Source of the DNA: Paucimonas sp.
GTDB taxonomy: Bacteria; Pseudomonadota; Gammaproteobacteria; Burkholderiales; Burkholderiaceae_D
Reading direction: 5' to 3'
Length of the DNA stretch: 32,000 nucleotides
NCBI GenBank assembly: GCA_036677325.1
Contig: JAKFBY010000019.1
Coordinates: 43,289-75,288, forward strand
The notes below the pieces were generated by a model. It was not told where the DNA came from, ran no database searches, and saw nothing but the letters and a program-made list of their open reading frames with translations. Shown in pieces: positions 4,760-32,000 of the stretch. The number at the start of each line of letters is the position of its first letter. Position 1 is the first letter of the stretch. Made by a program: the position numbers and the translations under genes.

Positions 4760-5030
4760 GCTTTACCGATATGTCTGATTCGTCTACGTCATTGAAGCTG
4801 CCGGCACGCATGCTGCAAAGCCGCTTCAGAAGCGCGACACGGCCAGTATAGGCAGTTAGCTTAGCCAGTTCAATGTAGTCATTGATCGATCGAATCGATC
4901 CGGATAACGCTGTCGGGCAGCACCTGTTATAACGAAACGGCATACCGGTCATCAGATAAATAAAGCAGACAGAATCAAAAGGCCAGCTTATAGTGATTCT
5001 GTCTCCTCCAAATCTCAATGAATTGGATTT

Positions 5031-5063
5031 AGCCCGCACCGCAAGGTTTGCGGGCTTTTTTTT
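5031..5063 (+). terminator. rho-independent terminator-like hairpin plus T-run
   Basis: agcccgca (5031-5038) pairs with tgcgggct (5049-5056) and is followed by a run of 7 T. It lies about 270 nt downstream of the aroG stop with no convincing ORF in between. Confidence 0.6.
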
Positions 5064-24687: not shown

Positions 24688-25092
24688 TTAATGTGCGACT
24701 CGTTTCAGACCGTCTTTCAATAATTTCACATTGAAGTTAATTAATAACCCCAGTCTCATCCCCGTTAGTTTTAAATAGGTCATGAGTTGGGCATGATGGA
24801 TCGGAATCAGCTGTTCGACAGCTTTCAATTCAACAATGATGGAGTCCTCAATCACGAAATCGGCACGAAAGCCGCCATCGATCTTGATGCCATCGTAAAT
24901 AATTGGTAATTCCTTCTGCCGTTCAAATTTTATTTGATGCTTGCATAATTCGTGCGCCAGACATGCCTCATATGCACTTTCGAGCAAACCAGGCCCTAAT
25001 GCGCGATGAACGGAAAACGCACAATCCAGCAAGCGGCCGGATAATTCCTGATAAAGGATTTCTCCGTGGCCGCCGTGTTCGCCGTGGTTCAC
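24688..25092 (-). CDS. GxxExxY family protein (PD-(D/E)XK nuclease-fold, small)
   Basis: Start placed at GTG 25092, 6 nt after the prfB stop, giving 134 aa. It has the GLLESAY signature, DFVIEDSIIVELK (D...ExK-type), and a His/Gly-rich N-terminus VNHGEHGGHGE. The 229-aa ORF-track version overlaps prfB and is rejected. Confidence 0.72.
   Translation of the reverse strand: MNHGEHGGHGEILYQELSGRLLDCAFSVHRALGPGLLESAYEACLAHELCKHQIKFERQKELPIIYDGIKIDGGFRADFVIEDSIIVELKAVEQLIPIHHAQLMTYLKLTGMRLGLLINFNVKLLKDGLKRVAH
25062..25090 (-). repeat. right arm of the 29-nt inverted repeat (inside the 5' end of the GxxExxY CDS)
   Basis: The minus strand reads aaccacggcgaacacggcggccacggaga. Confidence 0.7.
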
Positions 25093-25097
25093 AAGAA

Positions 25098-26202
25098 TTA
25101 CACGCCCTGTTTCAGCGAGGCGGCGATAAAATCGTCCAGGTCGCCATCCAGCACGGCCTTGGTATTGCCGACTTCGAAGCCGGTGCGCAAATCCTTGATG
25201 CGCGACTGGTCCAGCACGTACGAGCGGATCTGGTGGCCCCAGCCGACGTCGGTCTTGGAGTCTTCCAGCTTTTGCTGCTCGCTCATCCGATTGCGCAATT
25301 CCAGTTCGTACAACTTGGCCTTCAGCATGTCCCAGGCTTCGGCACGGTTGCGGTGCTGGCTTCGGTCGTTCTGGCATTGCACCACAATGCCGGACGGCGC
25401 ATGCGTTAAGCGCACTGCCGAGTCGGTCTTGTTGATGTGCTGGCCGCCGGCGCCCGAGGCGCGGTAGGTATCGACCCGCACGTCAGCCGGATTGATGTCG
25501 ATCTCGATCGAATCATCGACTTCCGGATACACGAACAGGCTGCAAAACGAAGTGTGGCGGCCGTTGGCAGAATCGAACGGTGATTTGCGCACCAGCCGAT
25601 GCACGCCGGTCTCGGTGCGCAAAAAGCCGTATGCATAGTCGCCCTCGACCTTGATCGCGGCAGTCTTGATGCCGGCGATCTCGCCGTCGGACTGCTCCAG
25701 GATCTCGGCCTTGAAACCCTTGCGCTCGCAGTAGCGCAGGTATTGCCGCATGATCATCGAAGCCCAGTCCTGCGCCTCGGTGCCGCCGGCGCCGGCCGTA
25801 ATATCGATGAAGCAATTGTTGGGGTCCATCGGATTATTGAACATCCGGCGAAACTCCATGCCCTCGACCTGTTTTTTCAGGGCGTCGGCATCCTGCTCGA
25901 TCGCGACCAGCGTATCTTCATCCTGCTCTTCGCGCGCCATCTGGAACAGGTCGGAGGCGTCGCGCAGACCGGCTTCGATCTGCGTGAGCGACAGCACAAT
26001 GCCTTCCAGGGATTTCTTTTCGCGGCCGAGGTCCTGTGCCCGCTTCTGGTCGTTCCAGACGCCGGGATCTTCCAGTTCCGCGTTGACTTGCTCGAGTTTC
26101 TCTGACTTTGCTACGAAGTCAAAGATACCTCCGAAGTTCAACTTCGCGGGTGGTCAGGTCCGCCAGCAGGGCGGAAAGGGCGTTGAGGCGTTCTGCTTCC
26201 AT
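25098..26202 (-). CDS. prfB: peptide chain release factor 2, with programmed +1 ribosomal frameshift
   Basis: Frame 0 reads [27 protein letters not shown], then in-frame TGA (26119-26121). The +1 frame continues from GAC (26120-26118) into the 347-aa ORF, which has SPF and GGQ ([10 protein letters not shown]) motifs. Confidence 0.95.
26118..26133 (-). promoter_or_regulatory. prfB frameshift site: internal SD-like GGAGG plus slippery CUU UGA C
   Basis: The mRNA sense strand reads CGGAGGTATCTTTGAC. This has the same architecture as the E. coli prfB recoding site. Confidence 0.9.
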
Positions 26203-26235
26203 GATGGATTTTGTGTTTGTTCGGTGAAACCGAAC

Positions 26236-26265
26236 ATTATACCTGAGGGGCGGAGGAGATCTGAA
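26236..26265 (-). promoter_or_regulatory. possible prfB promoter (-10 TATAAT, weak -35 TTCAGA, 18-nt spacer)
   Basis: On the minus strand TATAAT is at 26241-26236 and TTCAGA at 26265-26260. A ttcggtgaaaccgaa hairpin lies in the presumed 5' UTR. Motif match only. Confidence 0.3.
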
Positions 26266-26405
26266 TGGGTGCAAGTTGTTATTTGGATAATCACCAACGA
26301 AGTGAAAGCTATATCTTGCGAAAATTCCGATTTGATTGCTAAATCGCACTTGTGTATGGACAATGGCGTTTTTGCTCCTTAAGTATGTTAATCGATTCGG
26401 TACCG

Positions 26406-27596
26406 ATGACCAAGAATCTCAGTTTTATTAGCTTATTTTCCGGCTGTGGTGGACTTGACGTTGGATTTGTCAAGTCTGGTTTTACATGCAAGCGCGCATT
26501 CGATATCGACAAGAATGTGGTTGACGTCCATCGGTTAAACCTTGGCGAATCAGCAGTTGTGGCTGACCTTACTACGATTTCCACGTCTGAACTTCTTTCG
26601 AATGGAAAACCTACAGTAGTAATCGCCGGTTCGCCATGCCAAGGTTTTTCAACGGCAGGGAAGCGCCGGTTTGACGATCCCCGCAATTCGCTACTTTTGC
26701 ACGCGGGTCGCTTAGCTCTAGAAATCAAGCCTAAGGTATTTGTTGCTGAGAACGTTTCAGGAGCATTGTCTGGCGAGCATAAAACATACTGGCATCAGCT
26801 AGAGGCACTTTTGCGTTCGGACGGATATTCGACTGTCACTTTACGGCTCAATGCTTCACAGCTCGGGCTAGCACAGCTTCGATCTAGGATATTTATGATC
26901 GCCTGGAAGGGATCGAAAAATCCGGATTTAAGTTGCCCCGAGACTCTTCCAAGAACGCTTGGTGAAGTATTGGATGGTGTCGATGGCCTACCTCAACACG
27001 ACGAACTTCCTCTCGCAAAAACTTCCGCTCACTACCTTATATCACGGCGCATTAAACCAGGGCAAAAACTGTGTAATGTGCGAGGTGGAACTTCATCTAT
27101 TCATACTTGGGATATTCCAGAAGTGTTTGGTAAAACTACCGAGCAGGAGCGGTTAATTTTGAAGGCAACGATGAAGCTCCGCCGCACTGAGCGGCTGAGA
27201 GACTTCGGTGACGCAGATCCGGTCTCTATGGAGTCCCTGCGTAGGGAGTTCGGATCGCGCGTTGGCATCTTAGTAGAAGGGCTTATAAGCAAGGGATATA
27301 TGCGACGTATTGAAGAGCGCTTCGATCTCGCGAACACTTTTAACGGCAAATATCGCCGCCTCGATTGGAATTCGGTATCCCTGACTGTTGATACCCGATT
27401 TGGAGATCCCCGGTACTTCTTACACCCGTCAAAACATCGTAGCTTTACCGTGCGGGAAGCAGCTCGTATCCAAGGATTCCCCGATTGGTTTGTATTTCCA
27501 GGGCGACCTGTTGACAGCTATCGGATGATAGGTAACGCAGTGGCGCCTCCAATGGCCCAGCATATCTCCAGTATTGTTAGAGGTCTGCTAACCTAA
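26406..27596 (+). CDS. DNA (cytosine-5)-methyltransferase
   Basis: Start chosen at ATG 26406 (MTKNLSFISLFSGCGGLDVGF). Motif I is FSGCGG, IV is GSPCQGFS, VI is VAENV, VIII is QLRSRIFMIA, IX is FTVREAARIQGFPD, and X is GNAVAPPMA. A variable TRD lies between VIII and IX. Confidence 0.92.
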   Translation: MTKNLSFISLFSGCGGLDVGFVKSGFTCKRAFDIDKNVVDVHRLNLGESAVVADLTTISTSELLSNGKPTVVIAGSPCQGFSTAGKRRFDDPRNSLLLHAGRLALEIKPKVFVAENVSGALSGEHKTYWHQLEALLRSDGYSTVTLRLNASQLGLAQLRSRIFMIAWKGSKNPDLSCPETLPRTLGEVLDGVDGLPQHDELPLAKTSAHYLISRRIKPGQKLCNVRGGTSSIHTWDIPEVFGKTTEQERLILKATMKLRRTERLRDFGDADPVSMESLRREFGSRVGILVEGLISKGYMRRIEERFDLANTFNGKYRRLDWNSVSLTVDTRFGDPRYFLHPSKHRSFTVREAARIQGFPDWFVFPGRPVDSYRMIGNAVAPPMAQHISSIVRGLLT

Positions 27597-27667
27597 TACA
27601 ATGGTTTTCTACTGCACAATACTGTTATTCGGGAAGAAAAAATGTGTGACCATTGCCTGAAACTTAT

Positions 27668-28654
27668 ATGAGCATAATTAATGCATGGTCGACCTCTACG
27701 ATTGAACGTCAAAACACAACGTTCAAACTAAAACAATTGTACGAGCTACAAGCAATATTTTTGTTCGATCAATACGAGCCTGTTCTGGCGACTCCTGTTG
27801 AAGCGGCAATGCCATTTATAAATCGACTAGATCGCTGGCTGTCTTGTTTTGATGATCCCGATGATCAGTGGTCCGTGTTCCGCGCGTTTAAATATTTTTT
27901 CTTTATCGGAAAAGAAGAAACGGATGAGCTATATCGATGCGCGGTTAAGCATAAGCTCTTGCCTTGGTTGATTGAGCAAGAGGGGTTAGACATTTTTGAT
28001 TCAGACCTTTCTATGCGGCTCAATGATGTCGTTTCCCAGACTTGGCCGTGTCCAGTAACAGATAGCTTACGAATCAACAGCTTGTTGCACAGGACGCATT
28101 TAAAGGGACAAAGTCTAAGACCAGATTGGTTAAGTCTGAAGCAATTGGGCGACAAAGAGAAAATTGCTAGATATATCGCAAGCCGAAAGAATTCGAAAGA
28201 CGAGATAACCCCGATTAGATATCTCGTTTTGTTCGAGGATTTCGTCGGATCTGGCAGTCAGTGTGGGCGTGCAACGACGTTTGCCTTAGAGGCATTTGAT
28301 GGCCCAATTTTGTTAAGTCCATTAGTTGTTTGCCACCCCGGTGACGAACACCTCCGAGACCTTGCTTCTAAATCAAACGGTCGATTAACGTATGATCCTG
28401 TCGTAGTTCTTTCGGCTGAGTGCTTAGTCAGCGAAGTACCAGCTATTGGGGAGCCTTCTTCGTTTCCGTCTTTGCGGCTAGCGATACAAAACGGTTGTGC
28501 CAAAGGAGAATTCTCCGATCCTGCATTTGGATATGAGGGGGTGGGAAGCTTGGCTAGTTCATATAGCAACTGCCCAAACAATTCCCCGCCAATCTTCCAT
28601 GGAACTAGCGCCACTTGGCCGCATCCATTATTTCCACGAAAGGGGAGAGCTTAA
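27668..28654 (+). CDS. hypothetical protein with phosphoribosyltransferase-like (PRPP-loop) C-terminal half
   Basis: 328 aa from ATG 27668. IRYLVLFEDFVGSGSQCG (nt 28223-28261) resembles the type I PRTase PRPP-binding loop (four hydrophobic residues, two acidic residues, then a G/S/T-rich loop). The N-terminal ~190 aa are unassigned. The CDS itself is confident and the function is tentative. Confidence 0.6.
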   Translation: MSIINAWSTSTIERQNTTFKLKQLYELQAIFLFDQYEPVLATPVEAAMPFINRLDRWLSCFDDPDDQWSVFRAFKYFFFIGKEETDELYRCAVKHKLLPWLIEQEGLDIFDSDLSMRLNDVVSQTWPCPVTDSLRINSLLHRTHLKGQSLRPDWLSLKQLGDKEKIARYIASRKNSKDEITPIRYLVLFEDFVGSGSQCGRATTFALEAFDGPILLSPLVVCHPGDEHLRDLASKSNGRLTYDPVVVLSAECLVSEVPAIGEPSSFPSLRLAIQNGCAKGEFSDPAFGYEGVGSLASSYSNCPNNSPPIFHGTSATWPHPLFPRKGRA

Positions 28655-30675
28655 TGGTAGCGCTACGATTTGATAATCCGTTTCACGATCTTTGGGTAAC
28701 TGAAATTTTGGAATCGAACGCATTTGTTCAAATGTTCAGCCCTTTGCTTGTTGCAGACGCGGAAGAGCTATTCTCGAGCGGTCACGTCGTCGTTCGCGGT
28801 CGTCAAGGAAGCGGCAAGAGCATGTTGCTGAACCTTTTGGAGACGTCCACTCGGGTTGCATACGCAAATAATAGTAGAACAGAATTCCCAGCCCCACCCA
28901 AGCAGCGCACTTTCATATCTGCTGGAGTTCAGCTCACCAAGGAAAGCGCATCACTTGTCGCTGCTAGGGCAGAAGAACTCCCTGAAGACCAGCGCACAAA
29001 ATTAGTTGCGGCAAATTTTGCTGACTATCTAAATTCTTTGTTGTCGTCAGACCTTATACGAAATATATTGTACTTGGCAGCAGAGCAAGCTAAGAATTCC
29101 GCAATAATTCCTGAAGTGTCTGTCGACCTAAGTACTAATACTCAACAACGCTTCATTGATCTCTTGTACCAAGCAGAGGCTTGGAAAGGTTTTGTGCCAA
29201 AAGGGCTGCAGAGCCTAATGGACATTGGAACCGCGCTAGAGGGGCGAATTCGCTCCTACAAGAGCTATTTTAACTTTCAAACAGATGAGTTTCCTCGAGA
29301 GCTAGCAGTTTCACGCTCACCTGCAGGTGAGCCCATGGCGGAGCTAGCAGGTGCACTTCGTGACTCAGGTGTCTTGCCAAAGAACACGCTAGTACTCCTC
29401 AGGATCGATCAGCATGAGGAACTGTTTGAACTTGAGCGCCACACCAATCTTGGAACGGTCTTCCGTCAAGTGATCAACTCGGCACTTGCCAAGCGAGATC
29501 CTCGCGTAGCGTATCGTATTGGTACGAGACATTACGCATGGGATCGAGATGTAACCGCGTGGGGCAGTGGCGCCCCGTTAGAGGCGATGCGTGATTACAG
29601 CATTATCGACTTGGATCAAATTCTAAAGAGGGGAGAGCACACTAAAAGGTGGAAATTTCCTCTCTTTGCGGCAGACGTTGTAAGTAAACGTCTTGAGGCC
29701 GCGGGATTAAGGTTCCAGGGCAACTCTATGGAAATAATGTTTGGTAAGTCCTTGGAGCCAGCTGATAGAGCTAGGAGATATGTCGGCGACGCGAAATGCG
29801 CTCTTCAATTTGAAGCTGCCTGGGCGCCTGCGTGGAAAACGTATATAGAGAAACTCTGGAATGACGGTGATCCATTAGAAGCAAAATTCGGTGAGGTATG
29901 GCTGCGCCAGCAGGCACAAAAAAGACATAACGTTTCAAGCGATGGGACTCTGGCACATGATGCTCCATGGCGAAATAGTAAATGGTGGGCAAAAGAGCGA
30001 AACGAGATCGCGCTTATGCAACTTGCTGGCTTACGCCAGCAAGCACTAATTTGGTGTGGTGAACGCCAAATTATCGATTTGTCCGGTCACAACATCTTGG
30101 CGTTCATGACGATCTGCAAGTCAGTTTGGGCAACTTGGCAACGCCGCAATCCGGCAGATGCTGAAAAACGTGCAGCGCTACCAAATTTTTCAGTGGAAGA
30201 TCAAGTCATCGGTATTTCCGAAGCAAGTCAAATATGGTTTAAGAAGATCCAAGTTGGCCTCGAAGCGAACCAACGAACTCGCTTGGTAAGTGGGCTAGGC
30301 CAGTGGTTCAGGCGTCGAATGCTACGCGATCGGGCACTTTCGTATCCAGGTCACTCTGGATTTAGTTTGCTCGAAAGTGAGCTGTCTTCAGACCATTTTC
30401 TCGTGCCCATAATAAAGGCATGTCGAGACCATGGGGATTTAATGGAGTCGCAGCACACAACTAAGGAGAAAAACCAAGCCCAGCGCCTAAAGTGGTATCT
30501 ACATCCCTTGCTATGTCCTCTTTTTCGAATCCCGCACATTCGAACCAAGGAGCCAATCTACACATCGCTACATGAGCTTCAGGAAATTTACAATAACCAA
30601 CGACGGGCTGGGCCGACTGCGGATGGACCGATAAAGACGGAGTCAGAAGGTCAACTAGGCCTCCCTGGCTTTTAG
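28654..30675 (+). CDS. P-loop NTPase (AAA+/ORC-Cdc6- or STAND-like), 673 aa
   Basis: ATG 28654 overlaps the upstream TAA (TAATG) and follows AGGGGAGAG. Walker A is GRQGSGKS (28798-28821) and a Walker B-like motif is TLVLLRIDQHEE. The long helical C-terminal region has no nuclease motif I can recognise. Confidence 0.8.
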   Translation: MVALRFDNPFHDLWVTEILESNAFVQMFSPLLVADAEELFSSGHVVVRGRQGSGKSMLLNLLETSTRVAYANNSRTEFPAPPKQRTFISAGVQLTKESASLVAARAEELPEDQRTKLVAANFADYLNSLLSSDLIRNILYLAAEQAKNSAIIPEVSVDLSTNTQQRFIDLLYQAEAWKGFVPKGLQSLMDIGTALEGRIRSYKSYFNFQTDEFPRELAVSRSPAGEPMAELAGALRDSGVLPKNTLVLLRIDQHEELFELERHTNLGTVFRQVINSALAKRDPRVAYRIGTRHYAWDRDVTAWGSGAPLEAMRDYSIIDLDQILKRGEHTKRWKFPLFAADVVSKRLEAAGLRFQGNSMEIMFGKSLEPADRARRYVGDAKCALQFEAAWAPAWKTYIEKLWNDGDPLEAKFGEVWLRQQAQKRHNVSSDGTLAHDAPWRNSKWWAKERNEIALMQLAGLRQQALIWCGERQIIDLSGHNILAFMTICKSVWATWQRRNPADAEKRAALPNFSVEDQVIGISEASQIWFKKIQVGLEANQRTRLVSGLGQWFRRRMLRDRALSYPGHSGFSLLESELSSDHFLVPIIKACRDHGDLMESQHTTKEKNQAQRLKWYLHPLLCPLFRIPHIRTKEPIYTSLHELQEIYNNQRRAGPTADGPIKTESEGQLGLPGF

Positions 30676-30686
30676 GCGCGCATAAA

Positions 30687-31676
30687 ATGAGTATCAAACC
30701 GTGGGGATCTATTGATTGGTTGTTGCCGCGAACGAAGATACAGTCGTGGCATTTGATTACTTCTTCGTCTTTCGAGGAACGCTGTGCTGGTGTTTTGCAG
30801 CGTTTGCAGTCCAGCGAATTCAAGCTGTTGTCGACGACTCTATTACGTTTAACGAATCCACCTTCCGATTTCTGGACAGAAGCACAGCCTGCTATTAATA
30901 AAAATGTGGAGGAACTTCATTCTTTATTAGGTCAAGTTTCTGTTAACACGGTGGAAGGCAATTTGTTGGCTATGCCCAGTTCGCTTGTGCGATCGTCATC
31001 CCTTAATCCTGACAACTGTGAATCTGTAATTTTAGATATCACGACTATCCCTAAACGTTTCTTTCTGTTCGCGATGCAGCAGCTAATGCGCTCTGAAACA
31101 GTCAAAAATTTAGTAGTTACATATACGAAAGCTAAAGAATATCCGGAGGCCGCTTTATGCGAAAACGCGCTTCCTCCAACTGCACTTCAAGGATTTGTTC
31201 GCATGTCTGCTACTAAAGAAAGTTCGAGGTTGATCGTCGGAGTTGGTTATATGCCGCTTAGCGTTGAGGAAATTGTCGAGCAGGCGAAGAACACGAAATT
31301 AGACTTTATTTTCCCGTTTCCTCCTGCATCTCCGGCATTTCGTAGAAATTGGGATCTTCTATCGATGCTGATGCCTACGGACCCTCCACGCAATACCGAA
31401 ATTCACCGTGTACACGGAATGGACGCGTTTGAGATCTGCGAGCGTGTGAGGGCGTGGGGTGAGACTCGAGACTTGGATTTGTTGCCATTGGGCCCAAAAC
31501 CTCATGCACTTGGCATGGCTATGGCAGCTATGCGATTGGACGGCCGCGCTGAGGTTTTGTATTCGCAGCCGCAGGCTTATAGGCCAAACTATTCAACGGG
31601 TGTGGCGGTCGATTCGTCCGGACAACCGCAGATATCGGCTTATTGCCTAAAGCTAAATGGTCGTGATCAATTTTGA
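30687..31676 (+). CDS. hypothetical protein with Rossmann-like/CARF-like sequence signatures
   Basis: 329 aa, starting 11 nt after the NTPase stop. WHLITSSSFEE has a strand ending in S/T. SVILDITTIPKRFFLFAM fits [DN]x[ST]xxx[RK]. A second similar element is DLLPLGPKPHALGMAMAA. Confidence 0.7.
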   Translation: MSIKPWGSIDWLLPRTKIQSWHLITSSSFEERCAGVLQRLQSSEFKLLSTTLLRLTNPPSDFWTEAQPAINKNVEELHSLLGQVSVNTVEGNLLAMPSSLVRSSSLNPDNCESVILDITTIPKRFFLFAMQQLMRSETVKNLVVTYTKAKEYPEAALCENALPPTALQGFVRMSATKESSRLIVGVGYMPLSVEEIVEQAKNTKLDFIFPFPPASPAFRRNWDLLSMLMPTDPPRNTEIHRVHGMDAFEICERVRAWGETRDLDLLPLGPKPHALGMAMAAMRLDGRAEVLYSQPQAYRPNYSTGVAVDSSGQPQISAYCLKLNGRDQF

Positions 31677-31820
31677 GAATTAAACCTCAACTTACTGGGC
31701 GTTGTTGAGGCAGAGCGAGCGTTGGTACTTGCCAGTCTTACGGGCTCATGGCTCGTCGCAAGCTGCACCTGAAAACGCAGCTCTATGCTTAGTCTTGAGA
31801 AAATCGTGCTGTCCAAACGG

Positions 31821-32000
31821 TCACTCCCTTAAAAAAACATGCTCTTGATGCCATTTGATGAACTCAATCTCTGGCCTGAATTTTTCAGGCAATGCAATCA
31901 TCTTTCCTTCGATTCCTGATAACCATTCGGAAGAAAAAAGATTGCTTTTCCCCATTTCGATTTCTTTGGATACCTGCACCTTCAATTCGGTGGTTATAGT
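31821..32000 (-). CDS. partial ORF entering from the right edge (C-terminal 59 aa), unknown function
   Basis: An open frame from the window edge to TGA at 31821-31823 reads ...EIEMGKSNLFSSEWLSGIEGKMIALPEKFRPEIEFIKWHQEHVFLRE. It is AT-rich like the cassette. Truncated and unrecognised. Confidence 0.3.
   Translation of the reverse strand, partial: TITTELKVQVSKEIEMGKSNLFSSEWLSGIEGKMIALPEKFRPEIEFIKWHQEHVFLRE

Follow-up and report, generated by a model that had tools for sequence, protein, structure and literature searches.

A CARF6-family tandem Rossmann-like protein as a candidate sensor subunit of a four-gene, methylase-linked cassette in Paucimonas sp.

The subject of this analysis is a protein encoded near the end of a 32,000-nucleotide stretch of Paucimonas sp. 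DNA (GenBank assembly GCA_036677325.1, contig JAKFBY010000019.1, positions 43,289 to 75,288 of the forward strand), which as a whole is called the window; unless another locus is named, coordinates are those of the window. The protein is the product of gene 4, the last of four co-oriented genes that encode, in this order, a C5 cytosine DNA methyltransferase, a phosphoribosyltransferase (PRTase)-like protein of the PRTase-CE type ('CE' for 'conflict effector', PMC12871103), an ORC/Cdc6-like AAA+ ATPase and the protein itself. On profile evidence gene 4 belongs to CARF6, an already catalogued CARF-like family, and we lean towards the view that it is the small-molecule-binding regulatory subunit of this methylase-linked, probably anti-phage cassette, in which it would gate the PRTase-CE effector. 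The features of gene 4 are given below, with residue counts taken over 60 diverse homologues (identity down to 25%) and unit borders from DSSP on an AlphaFold2 model.

30687..31676, + strand: gene 4, a stand-alone tandem Rossmann-like protein of 329 residues, CARF6 family, ATG start
30687..31190, + strand: N-terminal Rossmann-like (CARF-like) unit, residues 1-168
30747..30782, + strand: strand 1 and its exit loop, W21...S28-x-E30-x-R32, first predicted ligand loop (W21 57/60, S28 34/60, E30 58/60, R32 60/60)
31035..31055, + strand: D117-I-T119-T-I-P122-K123, canonical CARF signature after strand 4 (D 60/60, S/T 60/60, P 60/60, K 58/60)
31191..31673, + strand: C-terminal Rossmann-like unit, residues 169-329
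31245..31247, + strand: G187 (in VGVGY), strand-1 exit of the second unit (60/60)
31485..31505, + strand: P267-L-G269-P-K271-P-H273, strand-4 exit loop and helix start of the second unit (P267 59/60, G269 60/60, P270 56/60, K271 60/60)
31560..31601, + strand: Y292-S-Q294-P295-x-x-Y298-x-P-x-Y302-S-x-G305, conserved aromatic/polar stretch in the C-terminal beta region (Y292 59/60, Q294 60/60, P295 59/60, Y298 60/60, Y302 60/60, G305 59/60)

The family assignment is carried by profile searches. The PADLOC model PDLC01923, 'CARF6--CARF_CARF_CARF', matches residues 2-307 (E 3.8e-56), and CARF6, which comprises the PADLOC-DB models PDLC01910-01925, is also recognised in each half alone: the N-terminal half matches four CARF6 hidden Markov models (HMMs; best E 5.5e-27), and the C-terminal half matches CARF6 HMMs (best E 4.1e-24) and weakly CARF3 (E 0.011). 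CARF6 models match 60/60 of the diverse homologues, and the weak matches outside CARF6, for the two halves and the 60 homologues, are only to the CARF-type models CARF3, CARF1, CARF_m9 and CasR. A preliminary description of this DNA had named three outcomes that would defeat its reading: a fold that is not Rossmann-like, motif residues that vary among homologues, and a clear match to an unrelated enzyme family. None of the three came about, and in Pfam, NCBIfam and the PDB sequences no unrelated enzyme family was matched. Gene 4 has 61 close homologues (35-89% identity), and those that carry a name in their source are all called 'hypothetical protein'. An exhaustive HMM search found 1133 representatives of clusters at 50% identity with E<=1e-3, 247 of them with E<=1e-30. 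The best 150 of the 1133 are 188-354 residues long, most about 330, without fused domains, and at this length they are too short to hold a fused effector domain. Gene 4 is therefore like CARF6 in profile, in length (about 300-330 residues) and in stand-alone architecture, with no difference at family level. CARF6 is a computational classification already made, which the motif-based reading of the preliminary description rediscovered, and the families of the partner proteins were already in Pfam as well.

That reading had been one or two Rossmann-like ligand-binding units, made from the letters alone, and every string it quoted lies where it was placed. WHLITSSSFEE covers residues 21-31 (nt 30747-30779), DITTIPK residues 117-123 (nt 31035-31055, exactly the coordinates given), RFFLFAMQQL residues 124-133, and the second strand-Gly-x-Lys-helix element, DLLPLGPKPHALGMAMAA, residues 264-281 (nt 31476-31529); K123 and K271 are 148 residues apart, where about 150 had been estimated. 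The CARF domain is defined by a Rossmann-like core with the motif [DN]x[ST]xxx[RK], its basic residue after strand 4, by a polar Ser or Thr ending strand 1, and by a six-stranded sheet in which strands 5 and 6 form a β-hairpin; the ligand pocket is located at the exits of strands 1 and 4 (PMC4012209). The motif occurs once in the gene 4 protein, and in 5000 shuffled versions of the protein at least one occurrence is found in 33% (mean 0.39). Its presence alone is no more than chance, so that conservation and structure are needed to give it meaning.

Both provide it. The signature residues of DITTIPK, conserved as listed, lie after the strand formed by residues 113-117 and before the helix of residues 123-135, and this placement at strand 4 together with the conservation makes the motif real. 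The second element, likewise proposed from the letters, consists of a strand (263-267) and a helix (271-283) on either side of the invariant G269 and K271. The suggestion that the CARF signature occurs twice holds by half: it is canonical in the N-terminal unit, whereas the C-terminal unit has G-P-K-P and keeps only an invariant lysine, K271. Even the most distant homologue found (P0228, hhalign E 4.8e-14) retains E-D-R, D-I-T, V-G-F and PIGTKPH. Mean column identity is 62% in the C-terminal unit and 52% in the N-terminal unit, and on the AlphaFold2 model the conserved residues map to the strand-1 and strand-4 exits of each unit.

The model of the full-length protein, built from a 27-sequence alignment, has a pLDDT of 87.9 and a pTM of 0.90, and it bears out the proposed tandem: a (βα)4-β-β arrangement is present twice in one chain. 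The N-terminal unit contains β1 20-27, α1 31-41, β2 46-56, α2 61-81, β3 85-92, β4 113-117, α4 123-135, β5 141-147 and β6 149-151; the C-terminal unit contains β1 181-185, α1 193-200, β2 205-211, α2 216-228, β3 238-243, α3 247-258, β4 263-267, α4 271-283, β5 288-292 and β6 295-298, followed by two further strands. The strand pairs 141-147/149-151 and 288-292/295-298 are compatible with the β-hairpin of CARF strands 5 and 6, as far as DSSP data, which do not give strand direction, allow. By hhalign no similarity was found between the N-terminal and C-terminal halves (probability 0.5%), which rules out a recent internal repeat of the two units.

In a Foldseek search of the PDB the full-length model matches tandem Rossmann-like regulatory modules, and the highest global TM-score belongs to Can1 (6sce), a tandem-CARF sensor of cyclic tetra-adenylate (cA4; TMq 0.49, E 9.6e-5, identity 8%). 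Like gene 4, Can1, a cA4-activated nuclease of type III CRISPR, combines two CARF-like Rossmann units within a single chain. Unlike gene 4, it has nuclease domains and depends on cA4 made by Cas10; gene 4 lacks an effector domain and shows no CRISPR or cyclase link at the loci examined. CARF proteins (Csm6, the ring nuclease Sis0455, Csa3 and Cam1, TMq 0.43-0.49) are also among the matches of the C-terminal half, which modelled alone has lower confidence (pLDDT 72). A SAVED-like tandem had been proposed too, and of this the arrangement stands, as the 329-residue chain holds a pair of units alike in topology, but membership of SAVED does not. As a concept, the fused pair of CARF-like units with one ligand site is shared with the SAVED domains of CBASS Cap4/Cap5, TIR-SAVED and CalpL; gene 4, however, has neither a PF18145 match nor a fused effector nor a CD-NTase/SMODS neighbour, and no SAVED structure is among the top 50 PDB fold matches of the full-length model. 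With canonical CARF domains gene 4 shares the Rossmann-like core, the strand-4 signature in the N-terminal unit and conserved loops after strands 1 and 4, and it differs from them in lacking a Pfam CARF match and a CRISPR association, in its partial strand-1 Ser/Thr and in the G-P-K-P of its second unit. Two other fold readings were dropped: DprA, LOG and TIR structures are absent from the top 50 fold matches of the full-length model and the C-terminal half, and a GT-B glycosyltransferase was rejected on low TM-scores. A Foldseek search of BFVD for a viral counterpart returned only GT-B glycosyltransferases and methyltransferases (TMq <=0.29).

The three partner genes precede gene 4 on the same strand, and their features are as follows.

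26352..27596, + strand: C5 cytosine DNA methyltransferase (Dcm type), gene 1 of the cassette (PF00145 E 1.3e-58; TIGR00675 E 6.5e-45)
26436-26450, 26634-26642 and 26748-26756, + strand: methylase motifs FSGCG, PCQ and ENV, respectively, from a motif search
27653..28654, + strand: PRTase-CE (PF24390 E 3.9e-23; PADLOC PRTase_III-A E 3.9e-13)
28220-28261, + strand: phosphoribosyl pyrophosphate (PRPP) loop of PRTase-CE, YLVLFEDFVGSGSQ, from a motif search
28529-28588, + strand: Gx14PNNxP motif of PRTase-CE, from a motif search
28615..30675, + strand: ORC/Cdc6-like AAA+ ATPase (PF24389 E 3.6e-39, residues 50-646)
28798-28821 and 29389-29421, + strand: Walker A (GRQGSGKS) and Walker B (LVLLRIDQHEE) of the ATPase, respectively

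All three partners have kept their catalytic motifs. The true start of the methylase is probably the ATG at 26406 (M19); tblastn matches to it in related loci begin at residues 19-24. The ATPase probably starts at the ATG at 28654, behind the Shine-Dalgarno-like GGGGAGAG, and the stop codon of PRTase-CE overlaps this likely start as TAATG, an arrangement by which the two genes appear to be translationally coupled. A search of PDB sequences with PRTase-CE and the ATPase found nothing.

Of these partners, PRTase-CE says most about what the cassette might do. Its Gx14PNNxP has been described as a specific motif of the effectors of type III-A retrons, and in Retron-Eco11 activation of the PRTase effector lowers PRPP by about half and is linked to abortive infection (PMC12746101). 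The preliminary description had allowed for a PRTase that makes the signal for gene 4, but since the protein combines the PRPP loop with Gx14PNNxP and matches PRTase_III-A as well as the PRTase-CE family of Pfam, it is more likely to be the toxic output, and its chemistry is suggested to be that of the retron III-A effectors, namely PRPP depletion. The PRPP loop and Gx14PNNxP are common to the cassette and to type III-A retrons such as Retron-Eco11; in the cassette, however, the PRTase goes together with a methylase, an ORC/Cdc6-like ATPase and a CARF6 protein. The cassette itself was rejected as a retron, as no reverse transcriptase domain is found in the four genes and no Rfam RNA in the island.

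The order of the four genes is identical in 12 genome loci that span several phyla, the named sources of which are Herbaspirillum, Paraburkholderia, Lysobacterales, Dyella, Nevskia, Stenotrophomonas, Pseudomonas, Vreelandella, a Pseudomonadales metagenome-assembled genome (MAG), Fimbriimonadales and Cytophagales. In the further loci L016-L027, mostly metagenomic contigs together with one Roseobacter genome, the order is the same wherever the contig reaches far enough, the variant L024 apart. No other flanking gene family is common to more than 2 of 18 loci, so that the cassette seems complete with four genes and without a conserved cyclase, nuclease or cas gene. A classical restriction-modification (R-M) system was rejected as an interpretation, since none of the four genes contains a nuclease domain and no fifth gene is conserved. 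Across the loci, divergence is most rapid for gene 4 and the PRTase, with 29-32% identity in Cytophagales; the methylase remains near 48%.

The variant locus (L024, 644-5709; also L025) carries PRTase-CE, the ATPase and a diverged gene 4 (P0228, 23% identity), with an N6-type methylase downstream instead of the Dcm-type methylase upstream; the methylase module thus seems exchangeable. In another locus (L020, 2493-2966) a Vsr gene lies directly 3' of the gene 4 homologue and overlaps it slightly; Dcm-type methylases are usually accompanied by Vsr. The neighbourhoods contain type I R-M systems, HEPN/MNT pairs, Fic, integrases and a relaxase, and in Roseobacter (L023, 1-10032) the cassette is found inside an element with integrase, TraD, MobA relaxase and AlpA genes, adjoining genes like those of a gene-transfer agent or phage tail, a setting which suggests that an integrative mobilisable element carries it. 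In a contig of a Burkholderiales MAG (L012, 8816-9193) a gene 4 homologue (57% identity) is represented by its C-terminal 128 residues alone, and the other three genes are missing; it may be a decayed remnant. Three large flanking genes are common to Nevskia (L006, 1-5621) and Fimbriimonadales (L007, 7505-13269), on opposite sides of the cassette, and may represent a second mobile or defence module in the same islands. Searches of plasmid and phage collections by tblastn found no copy. The cassette sequence is present in full in one soil-metagenome run.

How could these four proteins work together? From gene order, conserved loops and partner motifs we infer a division of labour that would involve ligand binding, formation of a complex, a certain direction of regulation and a role in defence. 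The methylase would mark host DNA as self, the ATPase and the CARF6 protein would together act as sensor or switch, and PRTase-CE would be the toxic effector, which once released would consume PRPP or nucleotides and lead to abortive infection; ligand binding by the CARF6 protein would gate this release. Within gene 4, the single chain may, like Can1 and SAVED, imitate a CARF homodimer, with four conserved loops that could form one asymmetric pocket for a nucleotide-derived ligand. Two of the putative loops belong to the N-terminal unit (S-x-E30-x-R32 after strand 1 and D117-x-[ST]119-x-x-P-K123 after strand 4), and the C-terminal unit, which seems to repeat the topology of the first in diverged form, would contribute G187 after strand 1 and G269-P-K271-P after strand 4.

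Several observations weigh against this proposal. With regard to the family, the gene 4 protein finds no match in Pfam or NCBIfam as a whole or by halves, and neither the Pfam CARF families nor the SAVED profile PF18145 match it (all E<=10); a search of PDB sequences with two profiles returned only noise (globin, dehydrogenase, ThyX). CARF6 is without a Pfam or NCBIfam model or a solved structure, and its public names are only 'hypothetical protein'. The label comes from PADLOC models which we take to go back to the CARF census published by Makarova and colleagues in 2020. We know of no experiment on any CARF6 member, and the literature, with the CARF census and the paper on '-CE' effectors outside its scope, yielded none, just as, within the same scope, it yielded nothing relevant on the PRTase-CE/ORC-Cdc6-like cassette with CARF6. 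With regard to the motifs, the Ser/Thr said to end strand 1 is kept only in part, position 28 being S in 34 homologues, G in 18, A in 6 and N in 2, while its neighbours E30 and R32 are conserved in 58/60 and 60/60. With regard to the cassette, it has no cyclase or other obvious signal synthase: there is neither a cas gene nor a cyclase among the Pfam matches of the genes called in L016-L027, several of which have no match, and CD-NTase/SMODS genes are absent from the neighbourhoods examined.

The fold comparison adds further points on the same side, and these bring in the possibility that gene 4 is no relative of CARF at all but a tandem USP/HUP-like binder of adenine nucleotides (ATP, AMP, cAMP), which would still be regulatory but would read adenine-nucleotide or energy status in place of a dedicated second messenger. 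The best E-values of the full-length search are those of the tandem USP-like C-terminal domains of KCC/NKCC transporters (5e-7 to 1e-5) and of the bacterial tandem universal stress proteins (USPs) 3ab7 and 3loq (about 5e-6 to 9e-6), all better than that of Can1. Of the two halves, the C-terminal one was searched alone and has no match with E<=1e-3; all its matches have E>0.02 and spread over many Rossmann folds, with CARF, USP and NAD(P)-Rossmann folds matched about equally and with the USPs Rv2623 and MSMEG_3811-cAMP among them. The fold search is thus compatible with CARF specificity without being proof of it, as CARF is not singled out among Rossmann-like folds, and because USP-like tandems have the better E-values the CARF specificity rests on profile and motif. 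Nevertheless, we judge a USP/HUP-like binder to be improbable. The TMq is only 0.24-0.29 for the KCC/NKCC and tandem-USP targets, compared with 0.49 for Can1. The sole link to USPs is a resemblance in fold (TMq 0.25-0.32); neither the USP profile PF00582 (E<=10) nor the ATP motif G-x2-G-x9-G-[ST] is matched by the protein. Strand 4, by contrast, is followed by an invariant D-x-[ST]-x3-K, the signature of CARF, and all profile links lead to CARF models.

The same conserved residues could be read in terms of catalysis. Stand-alone CARF proteins include ring nucleases, one of which, Sis0455, matches the C-terminal half (TMq 0.47), and the invariant or near-invariant E30, R32, D117, K271, Q294, Y298 and Y302 would suit a ring-nuclease-like or nucleotide-processing enzyme, whose substrate would be the product of PRTase-CE or an activating ligand. 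A related version is that gene 4 is an antitoxin-like neutraliser that holds PRTase-CE in check. For this there is a precedent in ShosTA, where the PRTase toxin ShosT is counteracted by ShosA, a DprA-like Rossmannoid protein (PMC12961424). The pairing of a PRTase-type toxic protein with a Rossmannoid partner is common to both systems, but gene 4 shows no DprA-like fold matches, and the cassette adds a methylase and an AAA+ ATPase. Since, moreover, no LOG or TIR structure is among the top 50 fold matches, no enzyme family was found by sequence, and no source of cyclic oligonucleotides is present on which a ring nuclease could act, we give an enzyme or neutraliser about as little credence as the USP/HUP-like binder.

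The constant neighbourhood suggests another role, in which gene 4 is a structural adaptor or a nucleic-acid-binding specificity subunit of the ATPase, for example a reader of methylation state or of DNA ends. Its Rossmann-like domains would in that case be surfaces for contact with protein or DNA and not pockets for small molecules. On the one hand, gene 4 directly adjoins the ATPase in every locus where neighbouring sequence is present, it is always accompanied by a DNA methylase even after the exchange of the methylase family, and the cassette, in which no nuclease or reader domain is evident, needs some means of reading methylation. On the other hand, the invariant residues cluster at the classical ligand loops of a Rossmann fold and not on surfaces, and Pfam revealed no HTH, PUA, SRA or other domain that reads DNA. 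ORC/Cdc6-type ATPases, in addition, generally have a DNA-binding winged helix of their own. An adaptor or DNA reader is accordingly less probable still than the two roles discussed before.

If gene 4 is a small-molecule sensor, its ligand might come from the marked chromosome itself. In a speculative 'methylome-barcode' alarm, to which we attach only a slight probability, gene 4 would sense methylated nucleotides freed from the cassette-marked chromosome when phage induce its breakdown: 5-methyl-dCMP here, and the N6-methyl-adenine equivalent in the variant with the N6-type methylase, as mononucleotides or short oligonucleotides. Their binding in the asymmetric tandem pocket would then switch on the ATPase and PRTase-CE, and the pools of PRPP and nucleotides would collapse. 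Such an alarm would account for three features: the need for a small-molecule sensor in a system without a cyclase, the constant link of a nuclease-free system to a methylase, and the strong divergence of the sensor (23% identity) in the sole variant with an exchanged methylase. A precedent is offered by PUA-Cal-HAD, which senses methylome-derived m6-dAMP: there, too, a nucleotide-targeting conflict effector is under the control of a small sensor that binds nucleotides, and DNA methylation is required (PMC12871103). The two differ in the sensor (PUA as against Rossmann-like), in the effector (calcineurin/HAD as against PRTase) and in the methylase, which is the Dam of the host in the one and encoded by the cassette in the other.

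Knowledge of the ligand would reveal how a nuclease-free system linked to methylation separates self from invader, and whether CARF-like pockets read more than cyclic oligoadenylates, the ligands of characterised CARF proteins. What is understood of CARF and SAVED sensors concerns almost exclusively the reception of cyclic oligonucleotides that Cas10 or CD-NTases produce. CARF6, a widespread family with more than 1100 clusters at 50% identity, has CARF ligand loops and yet is found in a cassette without a signal synthase. Should the alarm just described be true, CARF-like domains would read modified nucleotides derived from damage, not dedicated second messengers. For annotation, the gain is that a 'hypothetical protein' can be named a CARF6-family tandem Rossmann-like protein and a probable sensor subunit of a four-gene, defence-type cassette.

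The surroundings of the cassette in the window deserve brief mention. From about 26200 to 32000 the GC content is 0.46-0.49, compared with 0.53-0.60 in the preceding 6 kb, which is consistent with a horizontally acquired island beside prfB. The cassette adjoins prfB and lysS. The gene prfB (release factor 2; 25098-26201, - strand) has a programmed +1 frameshift site, CTT TGA C, at about 26119-26125, preceded by a Shine-Dalgarno-like GGAGG, with the N-terminal ~25 codons in a separate frame. Between lysS and prfB lies an open reading frame (ORF) of the PD-(D/E)XK_3 nuclease superfamily (24688-25377, - strand; PF13366 E 3e-43, residues 111-227), whose long N-terminal extension, overlapping prfB, is probably not translated. 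Farther away, at 5000-5063 (+ strand), the Rfam family Betaproteobacteria_toxic_sRNA is matched with 59.9 bits (gathering score 50), a hint at a betaproteobacterial host. Downstream of gene 4, a convergent ORF on the minus strand (about 31823-32000) runs off the end of the window, and its last 59 codons are visible.

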